From Bispira polyomma (Eukaryota): a stretch of DNA of 64,000 bases. Below the pieces are notes generated by a model, which was given only the letters and a program-made list of their open reading frames with translations, made no database searches and was not told the origin of the DNA. A program made the position numbers and the translations under genes. Shown in pieces: positions 4,328-61,481 of the stretch; the first letter of the stretch is position 1, and each line of letters begins with the position of its first letter. The DNA lies in contig OZ287758.1 in NCBI GenBank assembly GCA_965649765.1, forward strand, positions 20,832,001 through 20,896,000. Reading direction: 5' to 3'.

Positions 4328-4591
4328 GGGGGTCGCGGTGGCCTAGTGGTTAGCAAGCATTATGCTTCACAATCACTGGTCTTTCACCTTTGGGCGGTGT
4401 GAGTTCGAATCCTATCGATGCCTATGTGGGAAAGGTGGTAGTTCCTTACTGTGGGCTGCTGGTTTCAGTGCAGAACCTTGATCAACTGTATGCAGTGATT
4501 CCTCCAGCGTTTCCAACTACCCATCCCAATATAACCTAAACAGGTACTAGAGTGGAAGATAAATATCCAAATTAAAAAAAAAAAGAAAAAA
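4328..4591 (+). mobile_element. Full-length tRNA-derived SINE, copy 1, with A-rich tail
   Basis: A box TGGCCTAGTGG, B box GTTCGAATCC, 12-bp TSD AGAAAGCAAGTC (4316-4327 and 4592-4603). Closely similar to the copy at 8623-8876. Confidence 0.92.
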
Positions 4592-6738
4592 AGAAAGCAA
4601 GTCATTAATTTTTAAGTTCGGAATTAAATTATTACATACAAAACAACAGTCGGAGAACAAGATTTTCTAGTATAACGGGGGTATAGTTCATAATTTTGGG
4701 TACAGTTCATCTCAGGTACCTACCTATACACAGACACAATATAATATAATCCAGCACTGGTCCATACATATGTGGGATATGTTATGAATGAGGCTAAAAA
4801 AGCTGTCATCAACGAACGATGCATGACACTTGGGGGTTAATACACAGGGAAAACGTTCCACAGTATGACGGCACACCCAACCCCCAAGTTTCACAGTCTG
4901 AAAGCACCCCCCCCCCCCCTTAGATTTGGCTCTGCATTAATAAAACTTAAAAATTTTAGGGATCACAAGGTTTCATTAACTTATAATTATATAGCTGACA
5001 TAAAATATATATAGGTTTGAAGTAAATTGCCACATATAAGAATATAAGAGAATGATGCACGAGTTTGGCCTTTAATAAATGATCAAATGTTTGTAGATCC
5101 AAGAAACCTATAATACCATTTCTGTTAAACTGTTACACCAGCATTGTGACAATTCTGGTGAAGAAAAGCTTTATCAATCGATGTCTAAGAAAAGCTGCAT
5201 ATTGACTCGAGTCGCCTGAAATAAATAAGGTCTAAGGACTCTTGCTCATTGAAACGAGGGATGATTTCTCCAGAGTTTCACTGACATAATCTCTAGAACT
5301 TTCCAGAACATCTAGTTTATTGAATTACTGCTTGCCTTTCTAGACTTCATTTAACATATGGCAGTATCCCTTTATGTATCTGGATATGTGTATCCCTATT
5401 TTGAACAACCTCTACATTTTTCTTACCTAAGGGAACTGTTGCTGTTTTCAATTAAAAATATTGGAATGGTAAAACATGGCCTTTTGTTGAAATCGATCGT
5501 TGGTTGAAAATGCAATGAATACAAAACAATTTTATACATGTCTAATTAATTTAAATATGTTATCAATGTGATACACCAGTTTCTAAATAGGGCATAAAGT
5601 AGTATAAAAACCAGTGGCCACCAAAATGAGTGGGCGTAATAATAAAGAATTAAACCGCTCAGCCCTCCCCTTTTCTCTCTCTTTTTTTCTGTTGTACCAG
5701 CTGGCGCCTGCTTTAGAAAGGACACTTATCAAATTATCGCCCAATCCCCACAGCCACTTCCTTTTTAATAGAGTTTATTTTTTGCTTGGTCGGGTGAAAC
5801 ACATTGTTGCTCTTAATAAACCGAGAGTGGTAGAACAGAAATCAAGTTTGACAAGTTCTGTCAAGTTCCCATAATCCTGAATAAACAGATTGCCAGATAG
5901 TTATTCTATAACATTGTTTCATTCAATAATAGTCATAGCAAGTAATTTAATCACAGGATATTTTTTTCTGAGATTCTGTCGCTTTAAATTACCTGCAGTT
6001 ATTTTTTTTGCTATGTTATAATAGCTGACTTAAGTGATTGCATTAAAGATTTAATTGCATTTAGAGTAATTTTTTTAACAACACCTAAATAACTTGGGTT
6101 ATATTGCACAGACTTGTTTCATATATGTTGTTGGTCACCGTATTTTTACACGACTGGGTAAAATTGGTAAACTTGTGATTATGCGGGGTAGCCCCACAGG
6201 AGATAGTTAGTTCAGTGCTACTAGCTATCAATATTTGGTTAGACTTACCTATTGGGTCATAACCCTTGAAGCTCTCGCTTATTGGGGGACTATGCACTAA
6301 TTAACCTTACTTTTCCTGCTTTTCTTTAGAAATCCCCACTTGTGATATTAAAGGCAAGTAGGCAACGACGCCATCTTAAATATTTTTTACTTTTTGACAT
6401 AGTAACTTTGTTATTTTTACAAGGATTGTATTATATACATTTCATGATATTAACTACTGTGCTGGATGGATCCTCTGGAAAGTAACGTGGGGGATGCTCA
6501 CAAATTAGACAGGGTTAGACAGGCTCACGTTTCAAAACGAAACTGCTAACCAATCCCAAATTGACCTCCAGGAAAGGTCATGAAAGATCCATCCCATGTA
6601 AATATTTCTAAAGGGTACTTGTCCCCAAAAAGGGGACCATAAAACCAAAGGTGTGTCATACACCCATGTCTGCAGCAAGTGCTTACCAAATGTTGGTTCC
6701 TATCCCGTCCTGCAAAAGATTGCAGAAAAACTGCTGTT

Positions 6739-6773
6739 AAAAAACGAGTAGGGAACTGTAATAATGCAGTGCC
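6739..6773 (+). promoter_or_regulatory. Putative -1 ribosomal frameshift signal at the gag/pol junction of copy 1
   Basis: AAAAAAC (6739-6745), 6-nt spacer GAGTAG, then stem GGaACTGTA-ataa-TGCAGTgCC. Same position and architecture as in copy 2. Confidence 0.6.
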
Positions 6774-7660
6774 AGATTGTACATCCTCTAAGGCAGAGAG
6801 AATTAGTCAGGTTGCTAAAAAGCAATAGTAAATGATGTTAAAAGGTTTCAATTTCGAATATTGTACAGTAATACATGTATGTATGAAAGTAGTACGCACT
6901 GGAGGGCTGACTGGTCCAAAATTTGATAATTTGTCATATGCAGATGTCTTAAAGAAACTTACTACTCCCAGTGGTGTGGCTACCAGTAATGGTGTGAAAA
7001 GTTGTAATGTGTTAAAATGTTCTAACACCAACATTTTAGGGAAATCTCGCCCAGAAAAAACTACAACAGATGGGGGAAAATAGGTGATAAATGTGACACA
7101 ATGGGTTCCTGTTACTCCACCAAAGACAATACAAATGTCAGTTTTTACAAATGGGATGGGGACAAAAGGTGAATAAAAACACTGGTTTACAAAAGGTTAC
7201 AAATTGTCACCCACAAGAAAAGGCACAATGGGTTTTACCCATTCAAAACAGGTTTACCCTATTAGGTGGCAATGGTGATGTCCATAATTCTCCCTCCAGT
7301 GACAACAATGACTAGTACTAAACAAAATCAAGGCAGAGGCCTTACAATCTCTCCAGGTAATGCCACCATCAATGCAGATCCATACGATTTGAAACTACAA
7401 TGCCAGCCCCAAAAAGGGAACTGATTAAAGAGGCTTATGATGAGCCCCAGTTCCAGCAATGGAACTCCCAAACTACTGACAAATATGGTTTTATTCCATT
7501 AAGGGTCTTGTACATACCCGAAACAGACAAGCGTGATCAAACTCAAGCTAAATTATTGCAGCTATATAGTAAAATTAAAGATAAAAAATCTCACAATTTT
7601 ATGGGCTCACAAATTGAAATCAAATCCGAGTAAAAAGCAGATGTATGACAGAAACACTTA

Positions 7661-8595
7661 TTATAAAGAGTGGATGTCAACTGGTAAACTCAAAGTTAAT
7701 CCCGACAAGACTGAGTTCATAATCTTTGGCTCAAAACAACAGAGGGATAAGTTGACAGCATTGTTTCCAGTTGACATCCTGGGTAGCCCTTTCAGCCCAG
7801 CTGATTCTGTCAAGAACCTGGGTGTATGGTTTGACTCTGACTTTTCTTTCTCTAAACACGTTCAGAGTGTCTGCAAAAGCTGTTTTGTGCAATTTCGGGA
7901 CTTTAGACGTTTCAGGCGGTTTCTCACTTGTGATACTTCTATACTTGTGGCCAATGCTTTTGTCAGTAGTAGATTGAATTACTGCAATTCGCTTTTCAGG
8001 AGTCTCTCAAAGTTTAATTTACGTAAATTACAATGCATTCAAAATAGTGCAGCTAGAATTGTGTCCAACACCAGTCGACACACCAGTATAACTCCTGTTC
8101 TTAAGAAATTGCATTGGCTCCCTGTTGAACAGCATTCAGTGTTTAAGACAGCTACACTTGTTTATAAGTTTCTTCACACTGGGTTTCCAAAGTATTTTGC
8201 CCCATATCTTTCCACTTACAGTAGTTCCTACAATACCAGACGTAGCCAGAGTGGTAGTAATTTCCTTGTTGTTCCGAAATTCCACCCATCTACTCAAAAG
8301 TCGGTTAAACAGTTTGGTCACAGCTTTGCATTTGATGCTCCTATTGTTTGGAATGCTCTTCCTGATGTGATTCATGCTTCCCCCTCACTAGCCTGTTTTA
8401 GAAAGCAGCTTAAAACCCACTTGTACACTAAAGCATACCCACCTTAGTCTCAAACAACCCCCGGTGCGCTCTGTGGTGCTGACCCTTTTGTGTCCCTTGA
8501 TTTTGGAAATTGGATTACTGTCTTCTGTTCTGGTGCACCTTAGAGTCCCCTTTCAAAGATTAAACGCGATAAAAGTCTAATTACAATTACAATTA
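7661..8595 (+). mobile_element. 5'-truncated L2-clade (CR1 group) LINE: C-terminal ORF2, 3' UTR and (ATTACA)n tail, inserted in pol of YR copy 1
   Basis: Motifs WMSTGKLKVNPDKTE, VKNLGVWFD, RLNYCNSL, LQCIQNSAARIV, ITPVLKKLHWLPV, APIVWNALP. Stop at 8447; short tandem tail at ~8579-8595. YR-element pol resumes right after it. Confidence 0.9.
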
Positions 8596-8622
8596 GGACA
8601 AACAGCTGCTTTCCTAATAAGA

Positions 8623-8876
8623 TGGGGCCGCGGTGGCCTAGTGGTTAGCAAGCATTACGCTTCACAATTACTAGTCTCTCACGTCTGGGCGGCGTGAGTT
8701 CGAATCCTGTCGATGCCTAGGTGAGAAAGGTGGTAGTTCCTTACTGTGGGCCGCTGGTTTCAGTGCAGAACCTTGATCAACTGTATGCAGTGTTTCCTCC
8801 AGCGTTTCCAACTACCTGTCCCAATATAACCTAAACAGGTACTAGAGTGGAGGTTAAATATCCAAATTCAAATTCA
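8623..8876 (+). mobile_element. Full-length tRNA-derived SINE, copy 2, nested in pol of YR copy 1
   Basis: Same A/B boxes and body as 4328-4591, (CAAATT)n tail, TSD AATAAGA (8616-8622 and 8877-8883). Confidence 0.92.
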
Positions 8877-8883
8877 AATAAGA

Positions 8884-10228
8884 CACAGGTTTCGACTAAA
8901 TTTTAATCAAAACAATAGACATTGCTATGTTGATAATGCAACCATACAGAATTTACATATTTCACCTTTTATGACCAGTGAAATCCTGGCGCAGTCAATA
9001 GATGTGTAATAATAGATCTTAGCTTTCCTCATGGAGAGTCTGTAAATCAGCTGTAGCCAAGGGCAAGTACATGGATAACCTTTTTTGCCTTAACATTACC
9101 AACAATTGACGCACTCACTAGTAAGACCTCAAGACTAGGCTGTGGTACTCATTTCTATAAAATTGACGTCAGCCGCGCATTTCATCACATAAAAATGGAT
9201 TCAGCTGACCCTTTTGGGTCATAAACTAAATAAGAACTATCTAGATTTGTGCCTGCGAATTGGTTTTCGGCATGGAAGAACAATCTTTCAGCATGTTAGT
9301 GACAGTATTAGGTACATCATGAAATGTCAGGGTTATGACATCACCAACCATATAGATGATGTAATTGGTTATGGTAACGTCACATAAAGTAAACATTCTT
9401 TTGATATTCTATATAAGCTATCAGTGAGAAAACGTCACATAAAGCAAATATTTCTTTGATATTCTATATAAGCTATCAGTGACAAAAAATTGGTGTATCC
9501 AAGTACTGCAGTCACCTGCCACAGTGGCCTTTACAGTATCTTTGCCGCAAGAAAAGTTAGCAGAAATTAAAGCTCTACTTCAAGTCGGGCAAGCCAGACG
9601 CAATTGTACAAAAAGAGAACTACTATATGTTTCCAAATGCGTCAGGGTATCACATGTCTTTCTCAACCGGATATTAGACGTTTTAAGGTCAGTGGGTGCT
9701 ACACAAATAATACAAATCACTTCTGAATTCCACCAAGATGTTAACTGGTTTCTTCCAAAATTTAATGGAAAGGCATTCTTAGAACACAAACGTACCACAG
9801 ATTGTATACAATTAGATGCCTGCCTCCAAGGTCTGGGAGGTCGGTGTAACAATCAAGTATATGAATTCTCAATTACCTAGATTTTACCACAGTGCACCTG
9901 GTGGCCATAAGGGTATGGAAATCACTCTGGGCAGAAAAAAGGCTTCTAATACAATGTGGTAATGCGGCTGTTGTCACAATTTTGAACTCTGGCAAGACTA
10001 AAGATTTGACCTTAGCAGCTATGGCCAGGAACACATTCGTGGAAGTAGGCTTCTGTAGATATTAGTCTAAAGACCATCCATATTCTAGGCAGACTTAACA
10101 CAGTCGCTGATCTGCTGTCCAGGTTGCAGCTCACCAATAATAACAATAGTCAACTTGTAGATCTCATTCCAAATCCTAAGTGGGTTCAAGTTAAGGATAC
10201 CATATTAAACATAGACTGTTCTATATAA
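8884..10228 (+). pseudogene. Frameshifted RT-RNase H remnant of YR copy 1
   Basis: Fragments IIDLSFPHGESVN, YKIDVSRAFHHI, HIDD, CTKREL, VFLNRILDVLR, LDACLQGLGG, HILGRLNTVADLLSR, ending IDCSI*. All are homologous to copy 2. Confidence 0.85.
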
Positions 10229-10234
10229 TTGCAG

Positions 10235-11215
10235 ATGTACCCTCCCAGTTAAGAAAGACTGATACACAGGCATCACCAGAGCCCACCAAGCTTTCAGACC
10301 AGCCACTGAAAAGGCCTACATAAATATGTTTGGGATCTTCTCAGCTTATTGTTGTTTTTCTCAGATCAGACCACAGCTTGTCTATCCTTTAGTATAACTG
10401 GCTTTCTTAGAAGTTTTAGTGGTAAACAATGTTTTCTCCTCTTCAATTTCAAATTACATCTCTGCAATTAAAGCTAAACTGGCCCTGTATGGCCTTGACG
10501 TGTCTGTATTTGCAAGTCCTAGAATCAAATACTATCAAAAAGCTTTAGTACTAAATAGCCCTTATAGGGCTAAAATTAAGGCAATTATTGACACACCACT
10601 CTTACATCAGATCGTCCAGACTTGTGACACCATGCATATGGGTCAGGTATTTAAAGCACTTATCTCATTGCCTTTTTCTCTTTTCTCAGAATTTCAAATT
10701 TAGTTCCTTATGCAGTTTCACAATATTTAGCTCTTGTTCACCTTGCCAGGGGGATATTCGATTTGCCCCCCGCTGGTCTCCATCTTATTAAAAATGGTCC
10801 AAGAATCTTTAATCTAAAACTCTGGCCAAAGTACTTAAAATTCCAAGATTAACTGGTTTCCCCCTTGTATCCAGTAGTCGCTACAAGGTCCTTGTTGGCC
10901 ATTACTCATGGCCCTAAAAATGCCTCTCTCTTCCAAATCAAAAAAGATGATAAATGGTGCCCAATGACTGACACCAAAGTTTGCATAATTCTAACTCTAA
11001 TTCTCAGCCGACTGGGCCTCCAGAATTTCAACATCACCTTTCAAACCTTCCGGCGTTCAGGGGTCACTTTGGCTTTTAACAATAATGTGCCGACTCAGAA
11101 CATCAAGAGCCATGGCACCTGGACATCTGGACTGTGTCTGGAAATATATAATTCAGGTCCATAATGCATCTAAGCAAGTGACCCTTGCCTTGTAGTCCCC
11201 CCTTTACAACTCTAT
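10235..11215 (+). pseudogene. Frameshifted tyrosine recombinase remnant of YR copy 1
   Basis: AFRPATEKAYINMF, LAFLEVL, ISNYISAIKAK, FQTFRRSGVTLAFNNNV (catalytic H changed to Q), HGTWTS. Confidence 0.85.
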
Positions 11216-11284
11216 TGGGCTTTGGGGCTTTATTAACATACAACATATACAATATATATTTAAATGTCCGAAATATAAATTTTT

Positions 11285-11528
11285 GGGCCACCTTAGCACC
11301 TCTTTTCACTTTAAACTATATATTAATACACCTTTACTAATTAAATTCGGCAACCTTCAGCAAAATTTAAGGTTACCTAAAACTCTTAACTTAAATTCAA
11401 TTTTAGGTAACCCTTCTATAAGTTAGGGCTACCCTTAACCTAAATAATTTTGGCCACCTAAACTAGATTAGGTTAAGGTGACCTCAATTTTTTTTTAAAA
11501 ACTTAAACTCACGGTGCCACGGTGGCCC
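11285..11528 (+). other. 3'-terminal multi-hairpin domain of YR copy 1
   Basis: Closing stem 11285-11300/11513-11528 (14 of 16 pairs). Internal perfect stems 11371-11382/11401-11412 and 11433-11443/11468-11478. CTTAAACTCAC at 11502-11512. Confidence 0.75.
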
Positions 11529-12726
11529 CAATCTCAGTATGTAAATAAACTATTAGTGATAACATAGAAATTTAACTAATATCCCAAACTTTCTCTTTTT
11601 TGACTTGTGTTTATAACCTCTTTAAGGTCAAAAGGGTAGGACACTAAATGAGTGTTCACCAACTTTTTTTTCAATTATTATCTCATTTTCAATTGGAAAC
11701 TGATTTAGAAGTACAGCATCAAGGAGTACTATTTGGCATCAGTTTAAAATAAAAACCCAAAACAATGTGACAGTATTAATGTTTACACCATATAATTTAC
11801 TGATATGCTATGTGAGTTTTGTTTATTGCATTTAAAATGTTGTTTTATTTAATTTTACTACCTTGGCGTGTTTGATGTATAAATGGGTGACAATAATATG
11901 GCAACATGATATAACATAACTTTTACTTAATGTTTTTATGAAATATAACAAGTACTAAAAATCCTCGATGCCTAGTTTATATAATTTTTCATTGCCATTT
12001 GTTTTTATCACAATGTATTAGTTCCTGGCTGTTGCAAATGCACAAGTAATTATATTTTACATACACAACCAAAGTAGAGCTTGGCCTGGCCTGAATAACA
12101 TTTGTGGTGAGGAGAGTTATGGTGTGGTCTCTTGGCATTTCACACACCCTACACATACTGCAGCTGATTACTTACTTCTACCCCTCCTCACCCCAGCCAA
12201 CCCTATTTAGATACTCTAGCCAAACTAACATGGGGATTTTTTTCCTATTTTAACTGTTCATATACTGTGTCTGATACTGACCATTTGTAGGATTACCAAG
12301 ACTGAATATACAGAAAATAATTATACATCATCAGCATAAAGGCAATTTTCTTTATGAATTTCGAAGCCTGATAGACAAGTGTATATATATTATACAGACC
12401 TCAATGTCACAGATGCCAATTGGGAAAAAGAAACTATCTGATGGATAAAATGTATATTGTTCCTTTAGCAAAATCCTAGATGTTATTTCAACAATCAATT
12501 CAAGTTTATTGAACAAGTGGCCAATGTACACCCACTGTAGTTATATTGGCCCGGTTATTGCTTCATTTACCTATTTAGTATTGATACACAGTAAGGGAAG
12601 CTTAACAAAAGCTGTTACAATGTACAAATTGAGTTAATTTGTGTGGGGAATTAGGCAGACACAGCAGTGGCTGAAGGGGTATTGATTAGACTACAGTATA
12701 CATCATGTCTGGAACACACTCTGGAA

Positions 12727-14225: not shown

Positions 14226-15606
14226 CCCAGCGGGCATAACGATGTCTATATGATGTCTAAATGACGTACCACCCCGATGTCTAACTGACATCCTTTTTTG
14301 GTTGGATTTGAAAGTTGGAATGACATCATTTTTCTGGGGTCTAAATGACATCGGAAATATGATGTCATTTAGACGTCAGATATACGACATCATTTCAACT
14401 TTCAAATCCAACTAATAAATGGAGTACATAAGAAAAAGAGGGAGGGAGTAAAAGAAAAACGGGGGGGGGGGGGGGGGGGGGGGGGGGAAGGTGGGGCAGT
14501 AAATTTTAGCAACTGCCTTTACACTTCCACCTTTACCCTTACTTACCAAAGTGGTGCATACATTTAAGGCAGACAATAGGTTTAAGAAATATCTCTGATA
14601 TATAACTAATATAATATAGTATAACTTATGGTTGTCAATGTCTGAATAATTAAGATGTTTTGTGCTTCAGATAATTTTTTTAAAATTCATGTTGATGCAT
14701 TTCATATTTGTGGGACCGATATATATAATATATATATATATATATATTTATTATACCTCGGGGGCAAATCTAGAGATCCTATTGGTTAAAATTCGATCAG
14801 ATGACATAACATATTTACAGATATGGCCCCAGAGTCGCGGGCCATATTACTGCAGCAGGCCATATCACTTGCAAGGTTCAGCAAGCACCATTTGCGGTAA
14901 TATTTTGGTATTTCAATAATATTTACATATATTTAACATATATAACTTTAAATTACATCAAAACTAGTACTTAACGCTATTTTATTTAAATTATCATTAA
15001 TGCTCTGACAACCCCTACAATCGTCATACTCGTTATGGGTGTTAGGGGCGCTACTAAACCTCGGAGCTCGGCGAAAATAGACATTGTCTCTAAAAAAAAT
15101 TATTGAAAGACTATTTTTTTTCTTAAAAATGCTTCGGTATAATAAACAGAATATAAGCTGTTTGTGAGGGCCATACTAGGATATATGCACCCAAGGCCAA
15201 TATGGCCTGAGGGCCATCATTATGACCCTTACTTATCCTATATTCTGTAAATATGCTGCCATTTAAGACCCACATAATCATATTTGCTGGGCTGCGTACC
15301 TGCTGGGCAATTACAAAAAAGACCATTCCCATAATTCTCTTCCACAGGGATTTATATTAGGAATGTCATTATAAAATCATAACAACATCTAAATATATGT
15401 CATCTAAATATATGTCAGATAGTGTACATCATAATGACATCACAATGACATCTAAATATATGTCAGATATTGCAGATCATAATGATGTCTTAATGACGGC
15501 TAAATATATGCTTAATACATTAGGATGTCAAAATGACGTGGAAATGACATTATGTCCATTTTTAGACTAAAATGTGATATCAAAAAGACATCAAGTGCCT
15601 ACTGGG
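14226..15606. mobile_element. Non-autonomous DNA transposon, CMC/EnSpm-like
   Basis: TIRs CCCAGCGGGCA / TGCCTACTGGG flanked by a 2-bp AT duplication. Dense subterminal GA(C/T)(G/A)TC repeats at both ends (14240-14400, 15360-15595). Contains poly-G at 14461-14487 and (TA)n near 14720-14745. Confidence 0.7.
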
Positions 15607-29510: not shown

Positions 29511-30460
29511 TGGAGTAGGCCCTTTTCCACCACATGCAGTTGCTGCACTCTGCTCCAATGAAACCACAGTTTTTCCTTTTTCTATTTTTCCAGCTTCACT
29601 ACCTTAAATAGCCCTGCCTCCTCCCCCCTCTCTCTCTTTCATTACCCCCACCTCTTCAGGCCATATAAAGCAATATATTGGTTGTTTTTCTACTCTGTTC
29701 TAGTTTTGTCAATACTCCTTTTGGATATGTACCACCTTTGTGCTTTCAGTAATCTGTTTATTCTTCCTTGACACTATTTCCTACACAGAAGTGCTTCAAT
29801 CTCAAGCTGTAGAAGTATCTTTTATCAAGGGCACGACTTCGACGAATCAATCAGACCTCCATGCTTTAATACCTGTTGTTATCATGTTAAATATGTGGTA
29901 AGTTCTATTTTTTTTTAGGTCTTCCTGTCCCACATTATATGTCTACAAGTCTAGTTAACAAAAATTCACTGTTTTTTTCTATTTAGTGGCCAATTTTTAA
30001 GCTTAATACCACTATTACTTTGTAAAACATTCTTCAGAAATCAATTTTGCTCATGCACTTACAAAGAGAGGATTCATGTCTAGTGAAAATTTAAATTTGT
30101 AGTAATAGAAATGGTTGATTGTGAAAATCCCTAAACAATACATCGCCCAGCAGTGTCCTAAATCAATAATTGACCAGAAAGTAATACATAGTAGGATAAA
30201 GTCATCCTAAGCGTCAGTGCCCCACTTTGAAAGCTAACGCCCCCAGCGTTAGTGGCCTCAGTTCTGGGGTACCAGGCTGTTCACTACTATGGGATGGATG
30301 GGCGAGTATATGAGCCATCCCCCTTTCAAATTCTCCTGCCTTTTACCGTTCGTCAACAGAAGCACTAGGAAAATTTAAATACTGTTTGGGTGACAAAGAG
30401 TGTTTTATGTCTATACTATTTATTTGGTTTTAGTATTTTAGTTCAATATACACTCAAGTC

Positions 30461-31479
30461 ATGCCAGGTAAAAAGACTGTGTTTTGTCCGAAGTGTTTGC
30501 AAAAACATGAGAGACCTGTTGGAAGAAACTGTTTGGTTAATATGCCTGATATCTCGGGTGAGGGGGTGGAAGTTGATGCTGGCTCCCATAAGGACTCGCT
30601 GGTTCATTCGAACGAGGCTGTATCTAGCGCTATGCTACAGCAGTTACAATCTCTCAGCCAGGTAGTCGAGAGGATGGATCAGCGAGTCCAGCAGACGGAG
30701 GCAGCGTTGGCAGCTAACCTCACCAGTAGTAAGGCAAGTAGTACCGTTACTTCTAGTATCACTCTTAGTGTTTCTAAAGATTTAGTCTCTGCTGACGAAG
30801 GTAAAAGCCCACCTACTGGCCCGGATACTGTCGTTCCGAGTGTCAAATTTTTAATTCAGAACGCTCAGATTCAGTTGCAAGTAGAACAGAGGTTAAAAGA
30901 ACTCCGGTCTCTTAATGAAATTCCCTCAGGTAAAATTAAGTCTCAAAGAACTGGGGGGAACGAGGTTATTGTAAAAAAGGCGGTCGAATGGCCCCAGAAT
31001 TATGTGCTGACTGGCAGCTCAAAGACTCGCCCTAGTTATGACGACTTAACCCTCGTTCAATGGGTTTGTGGCTTCACCCGGATCGCTCATGAGGAGAAGT
31101 CGATTGAAATTAAGAACACTATGCTAGATTACATGAGTGGGAGGCGGCGAAGGCCTGCCATGCGGTAGTCCTGACAAATATGGAGATGGACAAGTTTGGG
31201 TGGTTGGATGTCGAGAAGGTCGACCGGATCTGCAGGGCACACGCCCAACGCCATGTAGGTGTGTCCAGATCTTTTCATGGGGCGAATGGCCGTGCTGGTA
31301 GCACTGGCAGTAGTAAAACTAGTCAGAAAAAGTCAACACCTTGCAGGTTCTTTCAAGAAGGAACTTGCAAGTTCTCTAGCTCACATAATACAGGCGGACA
31401 AATGTACAGGCATGGCTGTGAAACTTGTGGGGGTAGTCATAAGACCAGTATGTGTAGCAAAAAGGAGGCAAAAAACTGA
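30461..31479 (+). pseudogene. Gag-like ORF1 of YR copy 2 (broken near 31137)
   Basis: N-terminal CPKCLQKHERPVGRNC knuckle, coiled coil, WPQNYV and YDDLTLVQWVCGF. The frame switches to WEAAKACHAVVLTNME, followed by a C-terminal CRFFQEGTC..H..CETCGGSH..C zinc cluster. Confidence 0.85.
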
Positions 31480-31503
31480 GGGGCCACTGCTTGGATGCAG
31501 TGG
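31470..31503 (+). promoter_or_regulatory. Putative -1 ribosomal frameshift signal (gag to pol) in copy 2
   Basis: A_AAA_AAC (31470-31476) lies immediately before the gag TGA, followed after 7 nt by the stem CCACTGC-ttggat-GCAGTGG. The -1 frame is the open frame of ORF 31491-32213. Confidence 0.75.
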
Positions 31504-33988
31504 ACAGAAAGGTTAAAAAATTTAAGGTTGTAAATAGAACTGTTTATGGCACAGGCTTTAAAAATTTTCATTTGTTTGAGGAAAATGTGTATCAGAAAAT
31601 GTGTAAATATATGAAGGTCAAAAGGTCGAATGTTAGCTATAGTGAGGCTTTAAAAAGTACTGCTAGTACCAGAAAATCAATGTTTGTATATAATACAGGG
31701 CATACAGAAAATCTGAGGTATAAGGGTGAAGTTGACAGGTTTAGCTCTGGGGAGGTGACACAAAAGGGCAGGTTTTGCCAACCACAAAAGGTTGGCAGAG
31801 CTGAACTCAAGAATAATGTTGACACCTCTGCTGCCACATCTATTCAAAGGTTTGAAAAGTTAACACCGGTAATTGGCACCTCCATTCAAGTGGCTAAGAA
31901 GGTAACACCTATTGTGAAGCGACCCCCATGCACAAAGCACCAGGGCGTGGAGACAAAAGGTGTTAGAATATCAATTCAGAGGGGGGGCGAAAAGAGCCGT
32001 GTCAATGAAGCTCACTGTGGCCTTCAGCTTAACAATCGTTTTTCCGCGTTAGCACAAATACCTGTGGAGGACAATGCAGCTATTGTGAGGGTCGTTCGCT
32101 CTAGTAGCACGCCGGTAACAATGGGGGCTTTGCAAAGCACCAAGAGACAGGTACTTGCACAGAACGTGTTAATGAAAATGTTGAAATCTCTGATAAGTAT
32201 TCGTGTGCTTTAAAGCACAAGAAAAATAAAAGGGAGTTGCCTGCATAAGGCGGCCTCGAATCAAACACACAAAAAATGGCAGGACCAAAGTAGTCATGCA
32301 TATGGATTTATTCCTCTCTCAGCTTTGGGCAGTGAGATTGCTGACCAGGGTGGGGGAGGGCACGAATTATCCATATTACAAATGCATGAGAAACTACGTC
32401 TTGATGGCAGACATAATTATGCTGGCCTCCAGATTCCTGTTCCTTCCCAATTAAAAGCAAAAACGTGGGGGAAGTATTTACAAACCTACTGGAATTGGCA
32501 ACTGCCTCTCCTTATAAAATATGGATTCCCTCTTGATGTGTGTCGAAAAATTCATACCGAATCGAATGAAACTAACCATAAGTCGGCGGAGGAATTTCCT
32601 CAACATGTACACGCCTATATGAGGGAAGAATGTGACTTTGGGGCAATGCTTGGTCCTTTCGACACCCCACTGATTCGGAATTTGCATTGTTCCCCTTTAA
32701 TGACCAGACATAAACCCAACTCGCTTAACAGGCGTGTGATTGTGGATTTGAGTTGGCCTCAGGGGGCTTCAGTAAATGCAGGTGCTTCCCCGACTTCTTA
32801 TCTGGGTGTCGATTTTTTACTGTCTTACCCTTCTATTGATCATCTTACTGCTGAAGTGTCTAAATTGGGAAAGGGTTGTCAGATATTTAAAATAGACGTA
32901 AGTAGGGCGTTTCACCACATCCCCATCGACCCTGGCAACATTGACCTCTTTGGGTTGAAATCTTACTATGTTGATAAATCGCTGCCGTTCGGTTATTTGA
33001 ATGGCAGTACTATTTTCCAACGAATTTCGGATGCAGTGCGTTTCATAATGCACTCAGAAAATCATAACGTCCACAATTATATTGACGATTTTTTTATGTG
33101 TATCACTTCCCAGCAAAATTCAGAAAACGTTCATAAGATTGTAAGAATTGCTTGCTGAACCTGGTCTTACAGTTAGCCAGAAAAAATTGGTTTCCCCCAG
33201 CACTGAGGTAGTCTGTTTAGGCATAATAATAGACACAGTCAAATGCACAACTTCTATCCCGTCTGAAAAAATGGCAGAAATCCAGAGCAAGTGCAGGGAT
33301 TGGGCTTCAAAAATTATTGTACCAAGAGAGAACTACAGTCCTTACTGGGCCTTTTGCTATACATCTCTAAATGTATTAAATATGCTCAGGTTTTCTTGAA
33401 TAGAATGTTGGAACTGCTAAGAGATAATCATAGTAAAAATAAAATTGTAATAAGTGATGCATTTAGACGTGACTTAAATTGGTTTACAACTTTTGCAGAG
33501 CAGTTCAATGGTGTTTCCTTTTTCTTACATAAACCCATATCAGGTGAGATAGAATTGGATGCCTGCCTCACAGGTATGGGGGGGATTTATGGAAATCAAA
33601 TTAAAGTTCCTACAAGTATAACAGAGTATAACATAGCTTCTCTTGAAATGCTGAACATTTTGGTAGCATTGAAATTATGGATCCGAAAATGGAAGGGTCA
33701 GAGAATTTTAGTAAGATGTGACAATCAGGCAGTAGTCAGTGTCTTACAGACAGGACGTACTAGAGACCCATATTGGCCACCTATACTAGAAACATATACA
33801 TGTTAGCCAGTAAGTTTGACATTGAAATTGTTGTGGTCCATATTCTAGGTAGAGAAAATAAAGTGGCTGACTTACTTTCCAGATGGGCCGAGACAGAAAG
33901 TAACCACCTATTACTAAACCAATTGGCTGGACCTATTCAATGGCTTCCTGCCCCTGAAAATCTGCTTTATGTAAACACTCTTATATAG
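31476..33988 (+). pseudogene. Pol of YR copy 2: basic N-terminal extension, reverse transcriptase and RNase H (several frameshifts)
   Basis: RT motifs RRVIVDLSWP, FKIDVSRAFHHI, LPFG, YIDD, CLGIIID. RH motifs LDACLTGMGG, LEMLNILVALKLW, RCDNQAVV, HILGRENKVADLLSR. Confidence 0.92.
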
Positions 33989-33994
33989 CAGGTT

Positions 33995-34013
33995 GTAGTT
34001 TTCTTTTTTCAGG
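33995..34013 (+). promoter_or_regulatory. Putative 3' splice acceptor directly upstream of the YR frame
   Basis: gtagttttcttttttcag|G with AG at 34011-34012. Phase-1 entry is in frame with YR. Copy 1 has ttgcag| at the equivalent position (10233-10234). Confidence 0.65.
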
Positions 34014-34967
34014 CACTCACCCTGTGGGTCTGGCTCTGATGAGACGGGCTTGTGATAAGCTGAACTCAGCTCTCACTCCAGCCACTAATATAGCATATGA
34101 CAGGATGTTCCGACAGTTCCTAGCTTTTGGAGTCTTTATGTCTTGGCCTCCCCACAAGGTGACTGTGTTGCAAATTTTAGCATATCTAGAGTTCTTAAAT
34201 TTCAATGGTGTTTCGGCCTCTCAGGTAGTGAATCACATGTCGGCTGTGAAGGCAAAATGTGTGCAAGTATTTTCTGATCAGAGAATTTCTTATTTCACTA
34301 AGGCCATGGCTATGCATAGACCTTTACAGGTGAAGTTGAAGTGCACTTGCTTAGGGCTCTGATTAGTAAATGTGATAGTACTTACATGGGCCAGATTTTC
34401 AAGGCTGTTTATTTGACAAGTTTTTTCACATTTTTGCGTTTATCCAATCTGTGTCCTCATTCAATGGGGTCATACTCTCCCCTTAAGCAACTAGCTAGAG
34501 CTGATGTTTTCTTCAAGCCAGGGTATGCGGTCATCATAGTCAAATGGTCTAAGACACTGCAGAGAAATGATGCAGTTCGTTTGTTAACCATCCCAAGTAT
34601 ACAAAATTCAATTATCTGTCCTGTTCAGGCCTTGAAAGCCATGTTAGCCATCTCACCAAAAGTGAAAAATCTCCCATTATTTCAGTTTAAACTCCAAGGC
34701 TCGTGGGTTTCACTAACGGACACACGTGTGCGAAGACACCTCAAAAATATACTATCCTTACTTGGTACTCAGTACTCTGGCTTGACCTTTCACGCCTTCC
34801 GACGTTCAGGTGCCACCTTTGCGTTTAACAATAATGTCAAGATTCAAGATATTCAAAAGCAAGGCACCTGGACGTCGGATTGTGTTTGGCGTTACATCTC
34901 AGACTCTGTTGATGCTGGTACTCAGGTTGCTGATTCCTTTAAAAATGTCCTACAAAACACCTACTAG
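34013..34967 (+). pseudogene. Tyrosine recombinase of YR copy 2 (one frame break near 34345)
   Basis: Catalytic set is present: FLRLSNL (R), KWSKT (K), HAFRR (HxxR), QGTW, RYI (Y). Confidence 0.92.
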
Positions 34968-35030
34968 TTTGGGGCTTGGTGGTCTAACTTAAATATTCAG
35001 GCTTAAGATCTGTCATCTAAGACCTTTTTA

Positions 35031-35338
35031 GGCATAAGGTCCCCCCCCTTTATTATATTAGTACATATTGTACTCAAGTATCTAAAGTTCGACTTAAAAC
35101 CCTAAGTCAAACTTTAGACTAGCATAAATTTAAAGTTTAATCTCTTAAGTTTGCACTTAAATCAAAATTTTTACCACACCTAAACTCTTAACCTTAAACT
35201 CAAATCCTCTAAGTTTGGACTCAAAGTCAACTTTGGCAAACTTACACTCTTAAACTCATTCTACTTAAGGTCACCTAAACGTAAGCTTTGTATAAGCTCT
35301 AGGCCTTAAACTCACTTGAGTTAAGGGGACCTTATGCC
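35031..35338 (+). other. 3'-terminal multi-hairpin domain of YR copy 2
   Basis: Perfect 14-bp closing stem GGCATAAGGTCCCC/GGGGACCTTATGCC. Internal hairpins at 35060-35074, 35081-35118, 35145-35160, 35210-35244 and 35265-35309. CTTAAACTCAC at 35305-35315. Confidence 0.8.
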
Positions 35339-38300
35339 CACAACAGTATTACGTATTCTACAAAGAAACTGTATATAAAAAATGTGTTAGTAGTAGAAAT
35401 CATATACATATAATATGATTTCTTTAACCGCAATCTTTTCTTACTGTGAGTTGTTGGTTAAATAACTATCATCTGCCCACACACCGAGGAACTGTATACA
35501 CATTTCACCCCAATTAAAGTCTTTTTCCCTTTAAGCGTCAAAATATGTCATAGTTACTATGAAAAAATACACTATATATATATCGTGGTTTGTTGTATAA
35601 GCATAATGACTACTTTTTGTAAGTTCTGTTGTTGTAAGCTGTTTTGTAAAATAAGGCAACCATGTTAAACCAAAGAACGTCCAAGTGTGACAATATGTGA
35701 CAAATGTTATATAGGAAGTGCTTTCTTGTTCTGAACCAGTGGACTGGAAGAACTGCCGGAAATGGGAAGCTCTATCGGCAGACAGTATGTACAAAAGCTG
35801 AATCATGGCATGAAGAAACAAAGGCCGAGTGCTGAGAACATTCACTGAACTCATTGTGATAAATAAAAATCTTAGAAGAAGAAGTGATAATTATCTTAAA
35901 GGCTATCTATATTGTGCACAATTTCCTTGCTGGATCATGTGGTACTCGTGAGGGCATTCATAGGCATTCGTTGTTATCCATGCCTTACCGTAGGGACTTG
36001 TTCTATAAATCTATGCTATTCTTGAAGTAATCCATACACTTCTGTATTGCCGTGCTGTAAAGACTAAAATCTCCCACTCCACATACATTCAGCCGAGAAC
36101 ATTTCCTTCAAAGAGAATCCAAAGTCTAATTTTTTAACTGCGCCATTCCAATATAGCCTTACTTTGTTCCTTGGTTAACTGCTAATCCTTTTGTTGACAT
36201 TCTTGCCTGTACTTCCCATATCTATGATTAGGATGATATGTTTGTGCTTTAAGTTTTTACAGGACGAAAGGCTATATTAGATTAGACTGTATAATATTTT
36301 ATCAGTTTTTTGTCGGTCACTGACTTTCAAAATTTGAAATAATATGCAAACTCGTAAACAAGTTTTTTTTCTGTTTTTCAAAATATAAAAAATATATTTT
36401 ACTCCAAACAACAGGCCATAATATAAAAATATAAAAAAAATATTGTTACAGTTGGCAAAAAAAAATTGCCCTTTCTTTGCCAAAAAAATGCTGAACAATA
36501 TGTATATATTCTTTGTAAAACGGGTACTTTAGCCATGCCACAAGATCAATAGATTATTTTGTACAGACATTAGAATATGTGTAGTTATTCCCCTGCCATG
36601 GTTTGTAAAATCCCACTGTTTCACAATATTCCTTTGGGTAAAACAGATCAACAGTTTTGCTTGGCCTTGTGCAGGGTTAGCCGTTCAATAATGTCCAAGG
36701 AAAAGGTCAAAACAGAAATCAATCCCGCCCTGACAGACCTCAACAAGAAGGGACTTTCTAATGCCATTTGATCCTACCAAAAAAGATCCAGCCTCAATCA
36801 CATAGAGTGATATAGGCTATGTTTGTTTTATTTACTAACAATAATCTATGGCATGTTGACATTTGTGCATCGTAAACCTTAATGCCAGGGAAAGCACCAT
36901 GTGTGTCCACGAATAGTTTGTGCTGTACATATAATGGACTGACAAGGCCTAGTTTTAAATGGAATATGTCAAAAATAACCTTGCACATGGCAGTTGGTAA
37001 AACATCCTTGATAGTGTGAAGCCTCTATTTAACATGGACCTCATTAATAGAAGAATTGTAACTGTTATGCGTTGGTGGCCAAAACTGCTTATATGTCTAT
37101 ATTGCACACTTTCTCTCCCTTTCTTAAATTTAGTAGCTTCCCTTTTCCTTAGTTCGTCACTCCATACCACTCTGTTATACTTACTAATTACCTTTTACTT
37201 TGATTCACCTTCATTACCCTTATCCATCTGGCTTTATCTGTGGTTAATATTACTTTATTCCCTTAAATACTCACCTTTACCTTTACTTTGGTTCAATGCC
37301 ATATTCCCCTCCTTTAAATCATCCTAACTTACTTCACCTTAAATTGAAAATCTTAACTGTATGTGGAGAAAGCTACTATTGTTAAAACTTATACAACATA
37401 TCCATGAAGAGATTTTAGTGGATTAATTACAGAAAATAACCACAATAGCACAGAAATAGGACTCCTAGATGTAAGTATTGACATCTGGTATAAATTATTA
37501 TATAGATAGGGGGATATGTAGCATGCAATGTTTCTCAACAAGGAATGAATGGTACCAGAGACAATATTATCATCATTGTATTTGTATTTGCTGATAATGT
37601 AACAGGTTGTACGGTTACATCCTTAAAAAGTGCAGCAGTTATTTTTTTTACTGATCATGTGACTTTGTCTGAGCCAATGATACTCGTGCATCTTACGCAT
37701 GTATGTACACCCACTGAAAACTGTATAAAGTATACGAGGGACTAATTAGGCATGACATCACTGATATAGCAACCATTTCTTAAAGGCAAATGTGGGTTAG
37801 TGAGTATGATTACTATTCTTAAGGCACTTCCATTTTATAGCCCCCAGTTCCATTATTATAGTTATATCTATATGGGTGTAATAAGCATTGTATAGAACCC
37901 ATCATAAAATCTTTAAGCAGCTGCCCGGCACCATCGGAGACCAATTCGGCGTTAGAAAATGTTTTTGTTTAAAGCTTCTGCTTTAAGTTTAATCATTTAG
38001 AATGTAAAATATTTTGTATGTATAGGTTAGGGTCCTATGTTCTCTCTTTGTAAATAGAGTACAGCTGTCGAGGTGGTTTAGATTTAAATTACAACCTAAC
38101 AGTTATACACATATATATACATCTTCTCTTCCAATCATTCGATGATATGGATAAGTGAGTATCCTTTGGAAAAAGGTCACTGTTTTCAATGCTAAAGTCA
38201 CCTAGCTGGGATTAAATTACAATTTAACTATGTTATGCCATATGTATGGATAATATTTGCTCTGCTCGTCACACACCAGTGAAATCAGGAATTCAGAAAT

Positions 38301-42722: not shown

Positions 42723-42947
42723 ATTATATGAGTTACTCTTAATAAATTAAGGTGATAAAGTCTTTTGAATGCAGTTATTTCCAAGATACACATCTTTTAT
42801 TTGTTTTCATGATGTAGTACCTATAACTTCATCTGTAGTTGAAAATATCAGTGTGAATGAAAATGCACAAATAATGTTTTGAGTAGTCTTTTATGAAACA
42901 AATTTTTGGATAATAATAACTTGGTATATGGTTATTAAACCATTTGT

Positions 42948-43127
42948 ATACATGATCTAATAAGTGCCTACACATGTCTAATAAGTGCCTATACATGTCT
43001 AATAAGTGCCTATACGTGTCTAATAAGTGCCTATACATGATCTAATAAGTGCCTATATGTGTCTAATAAGTGCCTATACATGTCTAATAAGTGCCTATAC
43101 GTGTCTAATAAGTACCTATGCGTGTGA
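42948..43127. repeat. 21-bp minisatellite (TCTAATAAGTGCCTATACATG), about 8 copies
   Basis: Direct reading. It explains the repetitive ORF 42829-43038; an isolated partial unit lies near 43271. Confidence 0.95.
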
Positions 43128-43574
43128 CACGTATTAGCTAAATTTATCTACAGTTAGTTAAAATCGAAAGTATCAGTGGGAAATAAAATTCGTAATTATG
43201 GTCATTATTTTTTTTCTTTTGACAAAAAACCTTCTTGCTAATCTAGTGGAAAGCACTTGTTATAAGGCTGTAAGTGCCTATACATGTAACATGAGTGAGT
43301 GTCTGTTACACCAAGCATTAAGTGACTTATGCACTACATACCTGTGAGATTGATGGTTGTTGGAGATCATTAAAAAGACAATGGGTTATAGCCAGCTTTT
43401 AGTGATCTCCCATAAACCACACTCAATGCTGCCACACATTGCATTGGTACAGTACTGACAATAACTGTGGTCTGTCATTGTGAGAAGGTAAAAAGCCCTT
43501 TGTCATTTGCAAAAACGCATTACTATAAATGAATCAGAGTGTAACAACAAAAAAGTGGTGAGCATTGTTATTTC

Positions 43575-55680: not shown

Positions 55681-56476
55681 TTTTGTTTTTTTGCCCTTTA
55701 TGTTTACTAAGTATATATGTTTTCATAACTGGGAAAATATGCCATAAAATGTGGTGCTCAACCAAAACAGGTTGATCCTGTTTTTTTTCAGGGCTTCTAA
55801 ATATGAAAATATATCAGATATTGATATTAGAACCCATTATTTTATTAAGAAGCACCAAGCGTAACAAAATCATATTTATCTTACCAGTTATGCTTGATTT
55901 GGAGTGTAGGAGTGACATTAAAGTCAAGGATTGAAGTACACTTTCTATTTAGAGCTGACCATATACATATTTATAGAGGTTCATCAGAAATCTGATAATA
56001 ATTACAAATATACTAACAAAATATATTAACAAAAACCCCAACTAGATGGAATCTAAACTTGACTGGCGGATAGGCAATATAACCAGAGCAGAAGTCTTTA
56101 CAAAAGAGGGTGACAGAAAGCTGTAGGTCTGCCAGATCTAGCGACCCGTCTGCCATACCTAATGTACCAATCGGTGACGAGAAGAACTAATTTGTTTTCC
56201 TAGCTTTGATAATTTTGAAGAAAAAAAACAACACATGAGGATTATTTTTTTTCTCTACTTTATATGGAGCTGGGAGGAGTTCAGGTTGATTAACAAACTT
56301 GCCAGGGTAGACACTGAGTAAGTTAAAAAAGAGCAGTGAGCAATGATTGCATCATATTAGCTAACTGATTAGTTATAAATTTTGTGGTGTATACATTTAC
56401 TGCACTATTTTTGCAATAAAAACGACATTGTGAAGTGTGTCATGTATTTCTCTGCAGGTGAACACTAACAATCCAA

Positions 56477-56722
56477 TCCAGGGGCCATATTCATATAAGT
56501 TAACCGTATCCAGGGGCCATATTCATATAAGCTAACTGTATCCAGGGGCCATATTCATATAAGCTAACTGTATCCAAGGGCCATATTCATATAAGCTAAC
56601 TGTATCCAAGGGCCATAATTATATAAGCTAACCGTATCCAAGGGCCATATTTATATAAGCTAACCATATCCAGGGGCCATAATTATATAAGCTAACCGTA
56701 TCTAGGGGCCATATTCATATAA
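56477..56722. repeat. 32-bp minisatellite (TCCAGGGGCCATATTCATATAAGCTAACYGTA), about 8 copies
   Basis: Units start at 56477, 56509, 56541, 56573, 56605, 56637, 56669 and 56701. Confidence 0.95.
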
Positions 56723-59700
56723 ACTATGAATGCATGTGAAAGCAGTCGATTAGATGTATAGCTAATGTAATGCTTCCTAGATTTAAGTAGACTTAAAGAA
56801 AATGTAGACTTATGTCCTTTTTGGTTAAATCTGACCCCTGTGTATCAAATGTGTGAGTACAGTAATACCTAATATATTGTTAGTTCAAACTCTATAAATA
56901 TCTATGTGATGTAGACATTTTGTTAAAACACATATCCTATCTATGGAATTACGTATATTTGGTTAAGCCACAGATTTTGTCCACAGACTTATGTAACTTG
57001 TAGATTCAAGTTTGCTGTTTTGTTTAATAGACTTGTTTGCATCCAACATGTGAATACAACTATTTCTAATGTAATGCAGTTCAAAGGCATTAACAATTTA
57101 TATCAAATGGATAGATTTTTAAAAATAGATGACATCTAAGCACATTACCAGCAATACTTTGTTATTTGGGGAATAACCCATGACAAAGCAGGATTTTACC
57201 CCAATTGTAGGCATAGTCACAGTAAGGTAAAGCGAAGTAATACTGTCTCCTCCATTTCTACGTGGTAGTCCATAATTTTACCATGGTTTTAAACCAACCA
57301 GAATCAACGACACAAGATTGTCATGTAAGAATTCAACTTTTATAATACTTACACATTATATATCGTCCAAGAATCAGTACTCAGTAAAAATATTTGCACA
57401 TTCTATACTTTTACAGAAATCTAAGTTGTATGGTATAGGTTGTGGCAGTCACTTTTGTTTTATACAATTCTTGTTTGATTTTCACAAAGCCCTTATCAAA
57501 TTTTTAGGTGTTATCTAAAGAAAAGCCTGTCATTTGTAGAGCCATATAGAGGCTAGCATAAGGACCTGCCAAGGAGGAATAACCTACTAAATTCCATAGA
57601 TAGAGTAACTGGATTATAGTGGCTATTTCCTGGTAATACCAAGTATGGTAGGATACTAGTAGTTAATATTCTTTAACCCATGTGATAGTTCAATGACTTT
57701 ATAAAGCAGAAACCTGGCTTTAAAAACAAAAAAAGCAAAAACTGTTACAATAAAGGTGACTGAGTGCTATTCACCTAAAAGTGTCTCGAAGTCAGATATG
57801 TTAATATAATTTATTCAATTTAAACAGTACATTTTGCTTTCAGCAATAACACATGTTTTTTTGTTTACTGTTAGAATGCCCTGTTCCACTACACAGTAAT
57901 TTTCTTTACAAACTGAACCTCATAACCTTTCATCAGTGAGAAATGACCAGTGTCTATTACCATAGACAATACGTGACATGCTTGAATGCCACCTGATTAA
58001 ACAAGCATGCGTTGCAGTTATGAACTATAAACACCCATATTCTGGGAGAAAAATCCTGCTCAAATTCACTTTCAACTCAAATAAAGGCTATAGATGGGAA
58101 TTGTTATATATGGAAATAACCTAGACTTGTGACTTTTTGTTTTAATAGGGCTTTTGTTACTGCATTCAAATATGCAATAATATCTTGCTTTAAGGTGACC
58201 CTGGCCGACTTTAGATTTTATGTTTTAACCTTAGATTTATGCTTATCTGATTTGAGCACGAGATTTGTTGGAGAATACTGCTAAAGGTTGCAAGGTTTCA
58301 CTAATTTAGCCGGAGGTCACCCTACTATTTGCAAAGATCCTTCTACATCTATTACTACCAGTCTACCTTTATGTTGTGTGTAATCAGATGGAAAGCTTTC
58401 CACTCACTGCCCACTCACTAGTGTGTGTATCTGTAACTGATCACAATGTCAGGCAGCAATGCACATGACTAGATTTCTGATCCATACTTCTGGTTTTTGG
58501 TTTTGTGTGTTGAGATGACAGTGTCAAAAAATACATGGCTACATCAGCTGTATATTGGTATATTTAGAGAGATATATTTTCCAATTCATATTTTACTTCT
58601 CACATGCCATTACATAGATGTGAGTTCAACACAAAAAGAAGGCTTAATCCGAAATTTTATCTCAACCAAGGAGGGTATAATTGTTGATTTGTTTTTTTTT
58701 GTATCATAAAGTTGAAGAAAGGCAGGACATTCACAAATATACTATTGTCATAAGGCACTATTGGTAATTAGAATTTAACAAACATTGACAACAACATACC
58801 AACAAAAACTAGCATACTCCACGTTTTCAGTTAGAAAATAAAAACCCTTTTACACAGATACATATTTACACTGTAAGAACAGATGTTTCTATATTTAGAC
58901 ATTTGCTCACATATATTTGTGACACCTTCTATTTCTGAATGTTTAACACTCACCACATATTTTCCTTCTAAAAATACTGTCCTTTTATCTATACACTTGA
59001 TTGTGTCTTAAGACAGTCAATTCTTTGATACAATTATTTGATCAGATATGTCTTTTCCACCCAAAAACAGCTGTCTACACTAACCAGCAAAAATACGGGT
59101 AATACCTTTTGCTATTTCTCACGGTTTCACATTACACATTTTTTCTTCACATGGTCAAGTTTAAGATAACTTAATCTTGTGGCTGTATTTAACGTCTTCC
59201 CCAAGCCACTAACCAGACATTTTCCCTTTAAATTATTAACTTGATTTCTTAATCTGCACCAACACTTTTTAAACAGAGGGTATGTCTAAAGCTGGCTTAA
59301 TAAATGAGGTATTCTATTGAATAATTAACAAACAGTAAGCGAGTGAAAAGCATTAGCCTCGTATTCGTAAATAAATCCAGATGTGAATGATGTGACCTGA
59401 ATAGGACTGGTATCCATTTAATAGCCGGATCAGCTGAATGTATAGAAATCTAAATGGACATAATTTATGTATAAAAAGGGGAGATTTGTAAGCCCATTGT
59501 GTGCCTGTGCCAGATGTAATCAATCTTGGCCGATTTCTGTGGAATGAACTGGGATCTTTCTCAGCAGGTCTGTGGACATTCTGTTCCTTATACTCTTAAC
59601 AACCACTGTTTTGTGTTAGTATTTATATATCATGTGACTTTAGGTGAAATCTACTCTCTATATTTTGTTTATTCATTCGATTTACAAGTGGCAAAAGCTA

Positions 59701-60610: not shown

Positions 60611-61481
60611 TATTTTGCCACATTTGAAAAATGTTAACATAACACCATTACCACAATCCCAGTAAGATGATGCAGCAACATTGAAAGCTTATGAATGTAC
60701 ACGTTTTGGATGAAAGCAGATATAGGAAGGTAAAATTATCATAGATGCAAGATATATTGCTATCTTGACATTGACATTTTTATAAAGGTGAGATTATTCA
60801 ATTTAAATTTGATACTGCTATCAATATGCAGCCAGGATAGGTTTACATGGGACACTGTGAAATGTTGACAAAGGTACTAGCAAGTCTACCATTCTGCACT
60901 AATTTGTTGTTGGACAAATTGAAGGGGTGTTCATTTGGTCCAGTTTACTCGCACTAAATAGTGAGTCCCAGTAATCCAACCTTCTTACAAGGGAATGTAT
61001 TTACCACAGAGCAACGCCAACATAAAAAAATGATACCAAGTTTTACAGAAATCAAAGGGTTATAGATTATAAGGTATCCAATATCTCATTTAAAATTTAA
61101 ATTGTATCAATAAATCAATGGGAGTATTTAAAGAATACATTAGGCAACAATTGTACTTGTTAATGACTCAAATTCTATTTAGGTACTTCAGCAAATTTTT
61201 TAACTGTTGCTTCAGTCATTTGACAAAGTATTTCAGGGTAATACCCATTTGAAATAAAAGTATATATATAAAGTAACCTGATCTTTAGGTAATCACCCAT
61301 AAATAGTATTATTGCATTATATATTTTAACGATCTTTATAGGTGCAAGGCACAACAACCAAATTAACCCACTAATCATGACTCCTACAACATAACCTGGG
61401 CCGTCATCAGTTGGCAATAGCATCTGGACATCTTGCACAAGGATGTTATCCCACCAATAAATTTAGCGATATCGGTAAGAG

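Follow-up and report, generated by a model that had tools for sequence, protein, structure and literature searches.

The window analysed here is a 64,000-nt stretch of contig OZ287758.1 from Bispira polyomma, and it contains two plus-strand copies of retrotransposons of the type that encodes a tyrosine recombinase (YR), referred to below as copy 1 and copy 2. Copy 2 is a dead relic that spans 5.3 kb of the 1.04-Gb genome and carries its genes in the order gag, pol, YR. The elements and their main parts are located as follows.

30224–35496, plus strand: Ngaro-type YR retrotransposon, copy 2, decayed and ending after repeat B1 (BLAST against a longer sister; Pfam RVT_1 and Phage_integrase)
30224–30382, plus strand: split direct repeat A1 (93.7% over 159 nt to the A repeat that follows B1 in locus L106, a sister copy)
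30461–31479, plus strand: gag (ORF1), with a frame change near 31140 in copy 2 (sequence, unbroken relatives, structure model)
31470–33988, plus strand: pol in the −1 frame, consisting of a variable linker of about 280 codons, RT and RNase H (Pfam, unbroken relatives)
34013–34967, plus strand: YR exon or ORF with HAFRR and WRY motifs and a frame change near 34340 (Pfam, motifs)
34979–35496, plus strand: split direct repeat B1 (matches each of the two B repeats in L106)
6180–11588, plus strand: copy 1, which belongs to another family, is older and more decayed, and is split by an unrelated insertion (identities given below)

Gag is 356 residues long in unbroken relatives and is built from an N-terminal Cys/His motif, a long helix, a helical domain, a CCCH finger and a CCHC knuckle. 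The whole-protein model of Gag (pLDDT 76, pTM 0.42) gave no Foldseek match at E 0.001 and no clear fold match, the best VIA Z score of 5.0 being confined to one long helix. Pfam RVT_1 was detected above the cut-off in four of four pol proteins, with weak RNase H-like matches, and no methyltransferase (MT) domain was found by Pfam in the pol proteins, where the pol stop follows directly after RNase H. In copy 2 the pol gene is broken by a stop at 32211–32213 and by further frame changes. The recombinase matches Phage_integrase below the cut-off (E 0.0018) and contains the HxxR and terminal Tyr motifs; a search for its homologues returned 311 matches, some of which carry PF00589.

Split direct repeats in the arrangement A1-ORFs-B1-A2-spacer-B2 were present in five of the 15 loci that were compared with themselves (L098, L113, L118, L199 and L208). 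By this anatomy the element is a Ngaro-type YR retrotransposon of the DIRS order and not an LTR element. A DIRS1-like assignment was rejected because the terminal repeats are direct rather than inverted and there is no MT, and a PAT-like one because MT is absent, although split direct repeats are present. Ngaro elements are described as containing gag, RT/RNase H and YR but no MT, flanked by split direct repeats in the order A-ORFs-B-A-B (PMC3783388, PMC3266345). The element studied here shares all of these traits and adds a spacer of 724–908 nt between A2 and B2, and no SGNH hydrolase ORF was seen in it. The spacer is non-coding and kept within each family (L098, 7440–8170; L113, 7071–7979; L199, 6989–7713; L208, 7029–7830). 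Several copies, copy 2 included, end after B1.

Copy 1 has approximately 72% DNA identity, in patches, to locus L113, and 34–47% protein identity to L095, the reference of the copy 2 lineage. It is split by an insertion at about 7640–8900, part of which (8624–8872) is repeated at 4329–4577 with 93% identity. The ORF at 7503–8447 in this insertion, which from a motif we take to resemble the C-terminal part of a LINE ORF2, gave no Pfam RT match. In the copy 1 lineage (L111–L130) a CAG/CAA-GTATC motif recurs about 35–45 nt 5' of the gag ATG. At L095, high-depth joints over the element ends (2141/7342) show that the empty site itself is a high-copy repeat. A single frame of 1219 codons joins gag to pol in locus L205 (1805–5461) by way of an upstream indel; this is likely a mutation private to that copy. 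The window further contains tandem arrays, whose repeat units measure 48, 32 and 21 nt, as well as an inverted repeat of 59 bp that encloses an 8-nt loop (61428–61903, 56444–56790, 42926–43137 and 14294–14419).

Slippery heptamer and candidate hairpin at the gag/pol overlap

The features at the junction of the first two genes are given below.

31455–31457, plus strand: TAG closing the −1 (pol) frame, 4 codons 5' of the heptamer (sequence)
31470–31476, plus strand: slippery heptamer A_AAA_AAC in the gag frame (sequence; kept in sister copies)
31477–31483, plus strand: gag stop TGA (31477–31479) and 7-nt spacer (sequence)
31484–31503, plus strand: candidate stimulatory hairpin, CCACTGC (31484–31490), 6-nt loop TTGGAT, GCAGTGG (31497–31503) (fold, covariation)
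6739–6773, plus strand: copy 1 heptamer AAAAAAC (6739–6745) and mismatched hairpin (sequence, fold)

The gag gene of copy 2 ends GAG GCA AAA AAC TGA, with AAAAAAC in the gag register. The gag end, heptamer, 7-nt spacer and 7-bp stem were all found as a preliminary description of this DNA had reported them. The same description had the −1 frame continuing free of stops past the heptamer into a 240-aa ORF, and this frame indeed reads KKLRGHCLDAV and is open as far as 32213. The TTG that had been taken as the start of this ORF does not hold, since TTG 31491 falls inside the hairpin loop and the first ATG lies 43 codons in, at 31599. The ORF is real as a reading frame but is not a separate gene: it corresponds to the N-terminal linker of pol cut short by the TAA at 32211–32213, a stop that is private to copy 2 because the frame is open over 549 of 549 codons in two of the 30 sister copies.

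In a 44-nt window the copy 2 hairpin has a folding energy of −13.2 kcal/mol (z −2.78) that none of 200 shuffles equals; its z drops to about −1.3 when the window is lengthened to 84 or 101 nt and is not significant there. Within the 64-kb window AAAAAAC occurs at 42 sites (19 on the plus and 23 on the minus strand), and that of copy 2 is the only one with a perfect 7-bp stem 5–9 nt 3' of it. The signal had been proposed to be conserved in both copies, which are in fact members of different families. The heptamer is present in both, but the copy 1 stem, GGaACTGT/GCAGTGCC from 6752, contains one mismatch and folds no better than shuffles (z −0.56). The −1 frame of copy 1 closes after 29 codons.

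The survey of family members that had been suggested as a check gave a positive result at every level. AAAAAAC is intact in 28 of the 30 sister loci of copy 2 (copy 2 counted) and in 27 of the 30 copy 1 relatives, 12 of these 27 being open to the end of the locus. The survey comprised 190 loci, of which 166 had a recognisable knuckle (24 were dropped, copy 1 among them), leaving 139 distinct copies. Grouping these at 80% protein identity gave 19 clusters, with a few clusters being strays of larger families. An in-frame AAAAAAC lies between the zinc knuckle and the gag stop in 128 of the 139 distinct copies and in all 19 clusters, and the other 11 copies deviate by single substitutions or by an indel shifting the site out of register. 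The chance that x-K-N would be spelled as AAAAAAC, calculated from gag codon use, is 0.064. Among 99 foreign Gag homologues, which are protein sequences and may represent few hosts, the terminal knuckle is kept in 64, and 52 of these 64 end with KN or KNx, the background of KN being 0.9%. In 51 of the 52 the KN follows S, A, T, P or V, residues whose codon can end in A. When 60 more distant Gag homologues with a knuckle were considered, the KN-type end was present in 33 and absent in 27, so that the shift signal characterises a clade rather than every relative. No related elements were confirmed in a scan of viral contigs and metagenome contigs.

Stems start 5–9 nt 3' of the heptamer across the clusters, and at least four unrelated stem sequences are found at this same position. 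The mean fold energy of 40-nt windows in the 19 cluster representatives reaches its minimum of −15.2 kcal/mol at +5 nt and lies between −2.6 and −7.4 at offsets of −20 and below and of +15 and above; in 12 of the 19 representatives the hairpin window was unbeaten by any of 83 control windows. Weak stems relative to shuffles were observed in the representatives of F7 (z −0.12), F19 (z −1.32) and F1 (z −1.58). The commonest stem type gave 899 pattern matches genome-wide, not each assigned to the element, with 0 for the reversed control, and at one pair of this stem G-C occurs 412 times and C-G 487 times, with neither G.G nor C.C. This switch between G-C and C-G may go back to one or few ancestral events. 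In 24 aligned rows, where kinship inflates the counts, 94.4% of the cells are paired compared with 15–44% when the partners are slid; only two of nine pairs are changed on both sides, and shuffles do as well (256 of 500). Translated in the −1 frame, the stem also yields a recurring H-C-x-x-A-V, so that constraint on the protein could contribute to its conservation.

The site is a homopolymer run, and slippage of RNA polymerase on its six A residues would offer a different route by which pol might be put in frame; an A has been gained or lost nearby in L006, L027, L080 and L102. However, six A residues followed by C are found in 128 of 139 copies, the run being fixed at this length rather than extended, and the heptamer and hairpin are held at a fixed spacing of 5–9 nt, which in −1 frameshifting generally fits the footprint of a ribosome. 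We regard polymerase slippage as highly improbable.

The pol frame and how it may be reached

In every unbroken cluster representative pol lies in frame −1 with respect to gag (rows L196, L202 and L208 were left out of the linker and pol-frame figures, as an earlier KN had been picked in them), and in younger relatives the open stretch between the heptamer and the RNase H end spans 809–876 codons. The change of frame is confined to the heptamer by flanking stops, since in two clusters a stop closes the −1 frame 1 codon 5' of the heptamer and in two others the gag stop lies 0 nt 3' of it. The linker that follows is 240–390 codons long and variable across families, and its pN/pS in six pairs is 0.59–0.91, compared with 0.13–0.31 in RT-RNase H. 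It is thus near-neutral yet open, as expected for a translated spacer. The possibility that the linker is a separate gene or a protease was rejected, as it has no Pfam match and its pN/pS is near neutral. A short SY(A/S)(D/E)-like motif in the linker (31477–32300 in the window) is kept in several families.

Pol has no conserved start codon. The first Met of the −1 frame occurs 16–301 codons past the heptamer depending on the cluster, with the frame open from the heptamer onwards, and its position differs between close subfamilies (40, 159, 221 and 255; 41, 93 and 144). Translation of pol from a start codon of its own, by reinitiation, by leaky or internal initiation or from a subgenomic RNA, would assign the heptamer and hairpin to packaging or termination. 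This would accommodate the ATG 43 codons 3' of the heptamer that most members of the copy 2 family retain, as well as the Met found 16–19 codons in in three clusters, and the expression of overlapping ORFs in the DIRS order is not settled in the literature surveyed. Such initiation is nevertheless unlikely, because in the other clusters, where the first Met comes late (115, 144, 154, 165, 221 and 301 codons), the frame is open throughout, and the stop density of the other frames puts the chance of this at 4e-5 to 1e-14. The heptamer moreover sits in the gag register in 128 of 139 copies, and an Rfam scan yielded no credible IRES, its one match scoring 16 bits against a cut-off of 180.

Splicing of upstream sequence to an acceptor within the linker was also considered as a means of expressing pol. 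A conserved donor is apparently present in gag, and copy 2 has a pyrimidine tract and CAG at an F-I-P-L motif. Most representatives, however, lack a strong linker acceptor, and those that have one do not agree in its place and phase; the surroundings of the heptamer are purine-rich, and splicing of pol would leave the heptamer and hairpin unexplained, so that we give this arrangement very little weight.

As far as can be judged from the sequences, the heptamer and hairpin at the gag/pol overlap very likely constitute a −1 programmed ribosomal frameshift (PRF) signal. The −1 frameshift from gag into pol put forward in the preliminary description appears to be the best explanation of the conservation, the covariation and the frame relation taken together. 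The ribosome would pause at the hairpin with AAA in the P site and AAC in the A site and would slip one base back into the pol frame, most ribosomes stopping at the adjacent gag stop, and a Gag-linker-RT-RNase H fusion would be made as a minor product beside Gag. The sequence A_AAA_AAC ranks with the heptamers most prone to shifting (PMC5009743), and in combination with a plain 12-bp hairpin it gave 23% frameshifting (PMC3203594), although the stem of the copy 2 family is short in comparison (7 bp, −13.2). Because frameshifting falls steadily with stem length and is gone near 5 bp (PMC3203594), the efficiency is likely to be modest for a hairpin of 7–9 bp, in the range of a few to about 10 percent. 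Given that no protease domain was found, the long linker would likely tether the enzymes to Gag.

Predicted splicing of the recombinase

Two further features of copy 2 bear on the expression of YR.

30927–30935, plus strand: predicted phase-1 splice donor CAG/GTAAAA in mid-gag, from which the intron would begin at 30930 (conservation in representatives)
33995–34012, plus strand: predicted phase-1 splice acceptor, T tract and CAG, between the pol stop and YR (conservation in representatives)

In copy 1 the corresponding predicted acceptor is located near 10225–10234.

The YR frame relative to pol is 0, +1 or −1 across 22 representatives, and in all 22 the YR frame is interrupted by a stop no more than 40 codons upstream. 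Because the pol/YR frame relation varies, a fixed frameshift into YR was rejected. Poulter and Butler 2015, quoted in PMC13003380, held that in Ngaro elements the overlap of YR with RT/RH is in −1 and that YR is probably produced by frameshifting. Whereas the shift in that account takes place at the RT/RH-YR overlap, the elements examined here show a variable YR frame and the anatomy of a splice acceptor, and the varying frame together with the upstream stops makes the quoted idea unfit for this clade.

The donor sequence AG/GTA is found at one homologous mid-gag Gly in 19 of 20 representative gags, compared with 16 of 379 other Gly codons. On the acceptor side, 21 of 22 representatives have a YAG whose end lies 53 or 56 nt 5' of the conserved AF motif of YR, whereas 437 other offset pairs, likewise anchored on the AF motif, averaged 1.7 and reached 15 at most. 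The unanchored version of the acceptor test is weak, with phase 1 in 17 of 22 cases versus 149 of 307 control windows. Locus L196 is the single exception at the donor and is also the exception at the acceptor, where it is one base off. At the protein level the donor pattern is seen in 124 of 133 foreign Gags, versus 479 of 3179 windows, and this was not counted as splice evidence because the Gly may be kept for protein reasons.

These conserved sites predict that YR is reached by splicing from the mid-gag donor to the acceptor past the pol stop, a conclusion that we hold with less confidence than the gag-pol frameshift. The predicted spliced product would consist of approximately 160 N-terminal Gag residues (GagN) fused to YR, with the shift site removed. 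In some clusters a Met lies a few codons 5' of the acceptor, and independent initiation of YR is therefore possible in them. Three sequencing runs of unstated type, aligned as contigs to a family copy, gave even coverage without a GT..AG junction; they look like DNA and thus carry no information on splicing. No natural GagN-YR fusion was found among stored proteins, where the 120 YR matches listed of the 311 are all at most 356 aa long; the listed matches look like unspliced ORF calls.

Relation to known systems and implications

MMTV gag-pro uses A_AAA_AAC with a pseudoknot as the stimulator, the HIV-1 stimulator is of the hairpin type, and retroviral env is made from a spliced subgenomic RNA. 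With the gag-pol −1 PRF of retroviruses and Ty3/gypsy elements the present signal shares an X_XXY_YYZ heptamer at the gag end, a spacer of 5–9 nt, a stem, and pol in the −1 frame. Unlike those elements, the one described here is without LTRs, protease or DDE integrase, and the variable linker of 240–390 codons stands where the retroviral or Ty3/gypsy protease would be. In the predicted folds the stimulator is apparently a plain hairpin, in contrast to the MMTV pseudoknot. YR resembles retroviral env in being a third gene after pol with a predicted upstream donor and a predicted acceptor at the pol end. It differs from env in that the donor lies mid-gag and is phase-matched, so that a GagN-recombinase fusion is predicted and no separate envelope protein. 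Among 51 animal LTR elements, 28 have pol in the −1 frame, many with X_XXY_YYZ heptamers (PMC5009743); DIRS or Ngaro elements are not mentioned in the portion of that paper searched. No description of a gag-pol heptamer with hairpin, or of a spliced YR, in YR retrotransposons was found in the literature searched, a body that does not include the founding Ngaro papers or Repbase.

While the mechanism of −1 PRF is textbook knowledge, its presence and depth of conservation in the DIRS order are new, as is the predicted splice. Translation of the downstream ORFs in this order is left open in the literature surveyed, in which the quoted suggestion of a frameshifted YR is the sole statement. The overall picture that we consider fairly probable is that of a large animal Ngaro clade with retrovirus-like expression, in which Gag would be made from the full-length RNA, Gag-Pol by hairpin-stimulated −1 frameshifting, and YR by splicing as a GagN fusion, by which the recombinase would be directed to the particle or to chromatin. 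The gag-pol signal is short and precise, and a single genome provides about 900 natural variants of it and several independent stem designs. It would extend gag-pol −1 frameshifting to an order of retroelements that has neither protease nor DDE integrase. The splice reading, if true, changes the annotation of the YR protein in Ngaro-type elements. In the Ngaro elements of Cafeteria the loss of ORF1 accompanies a changed integration-site preference (PMC8547959), and it may be speculated that splicing of GagN to YR could explain this effect.
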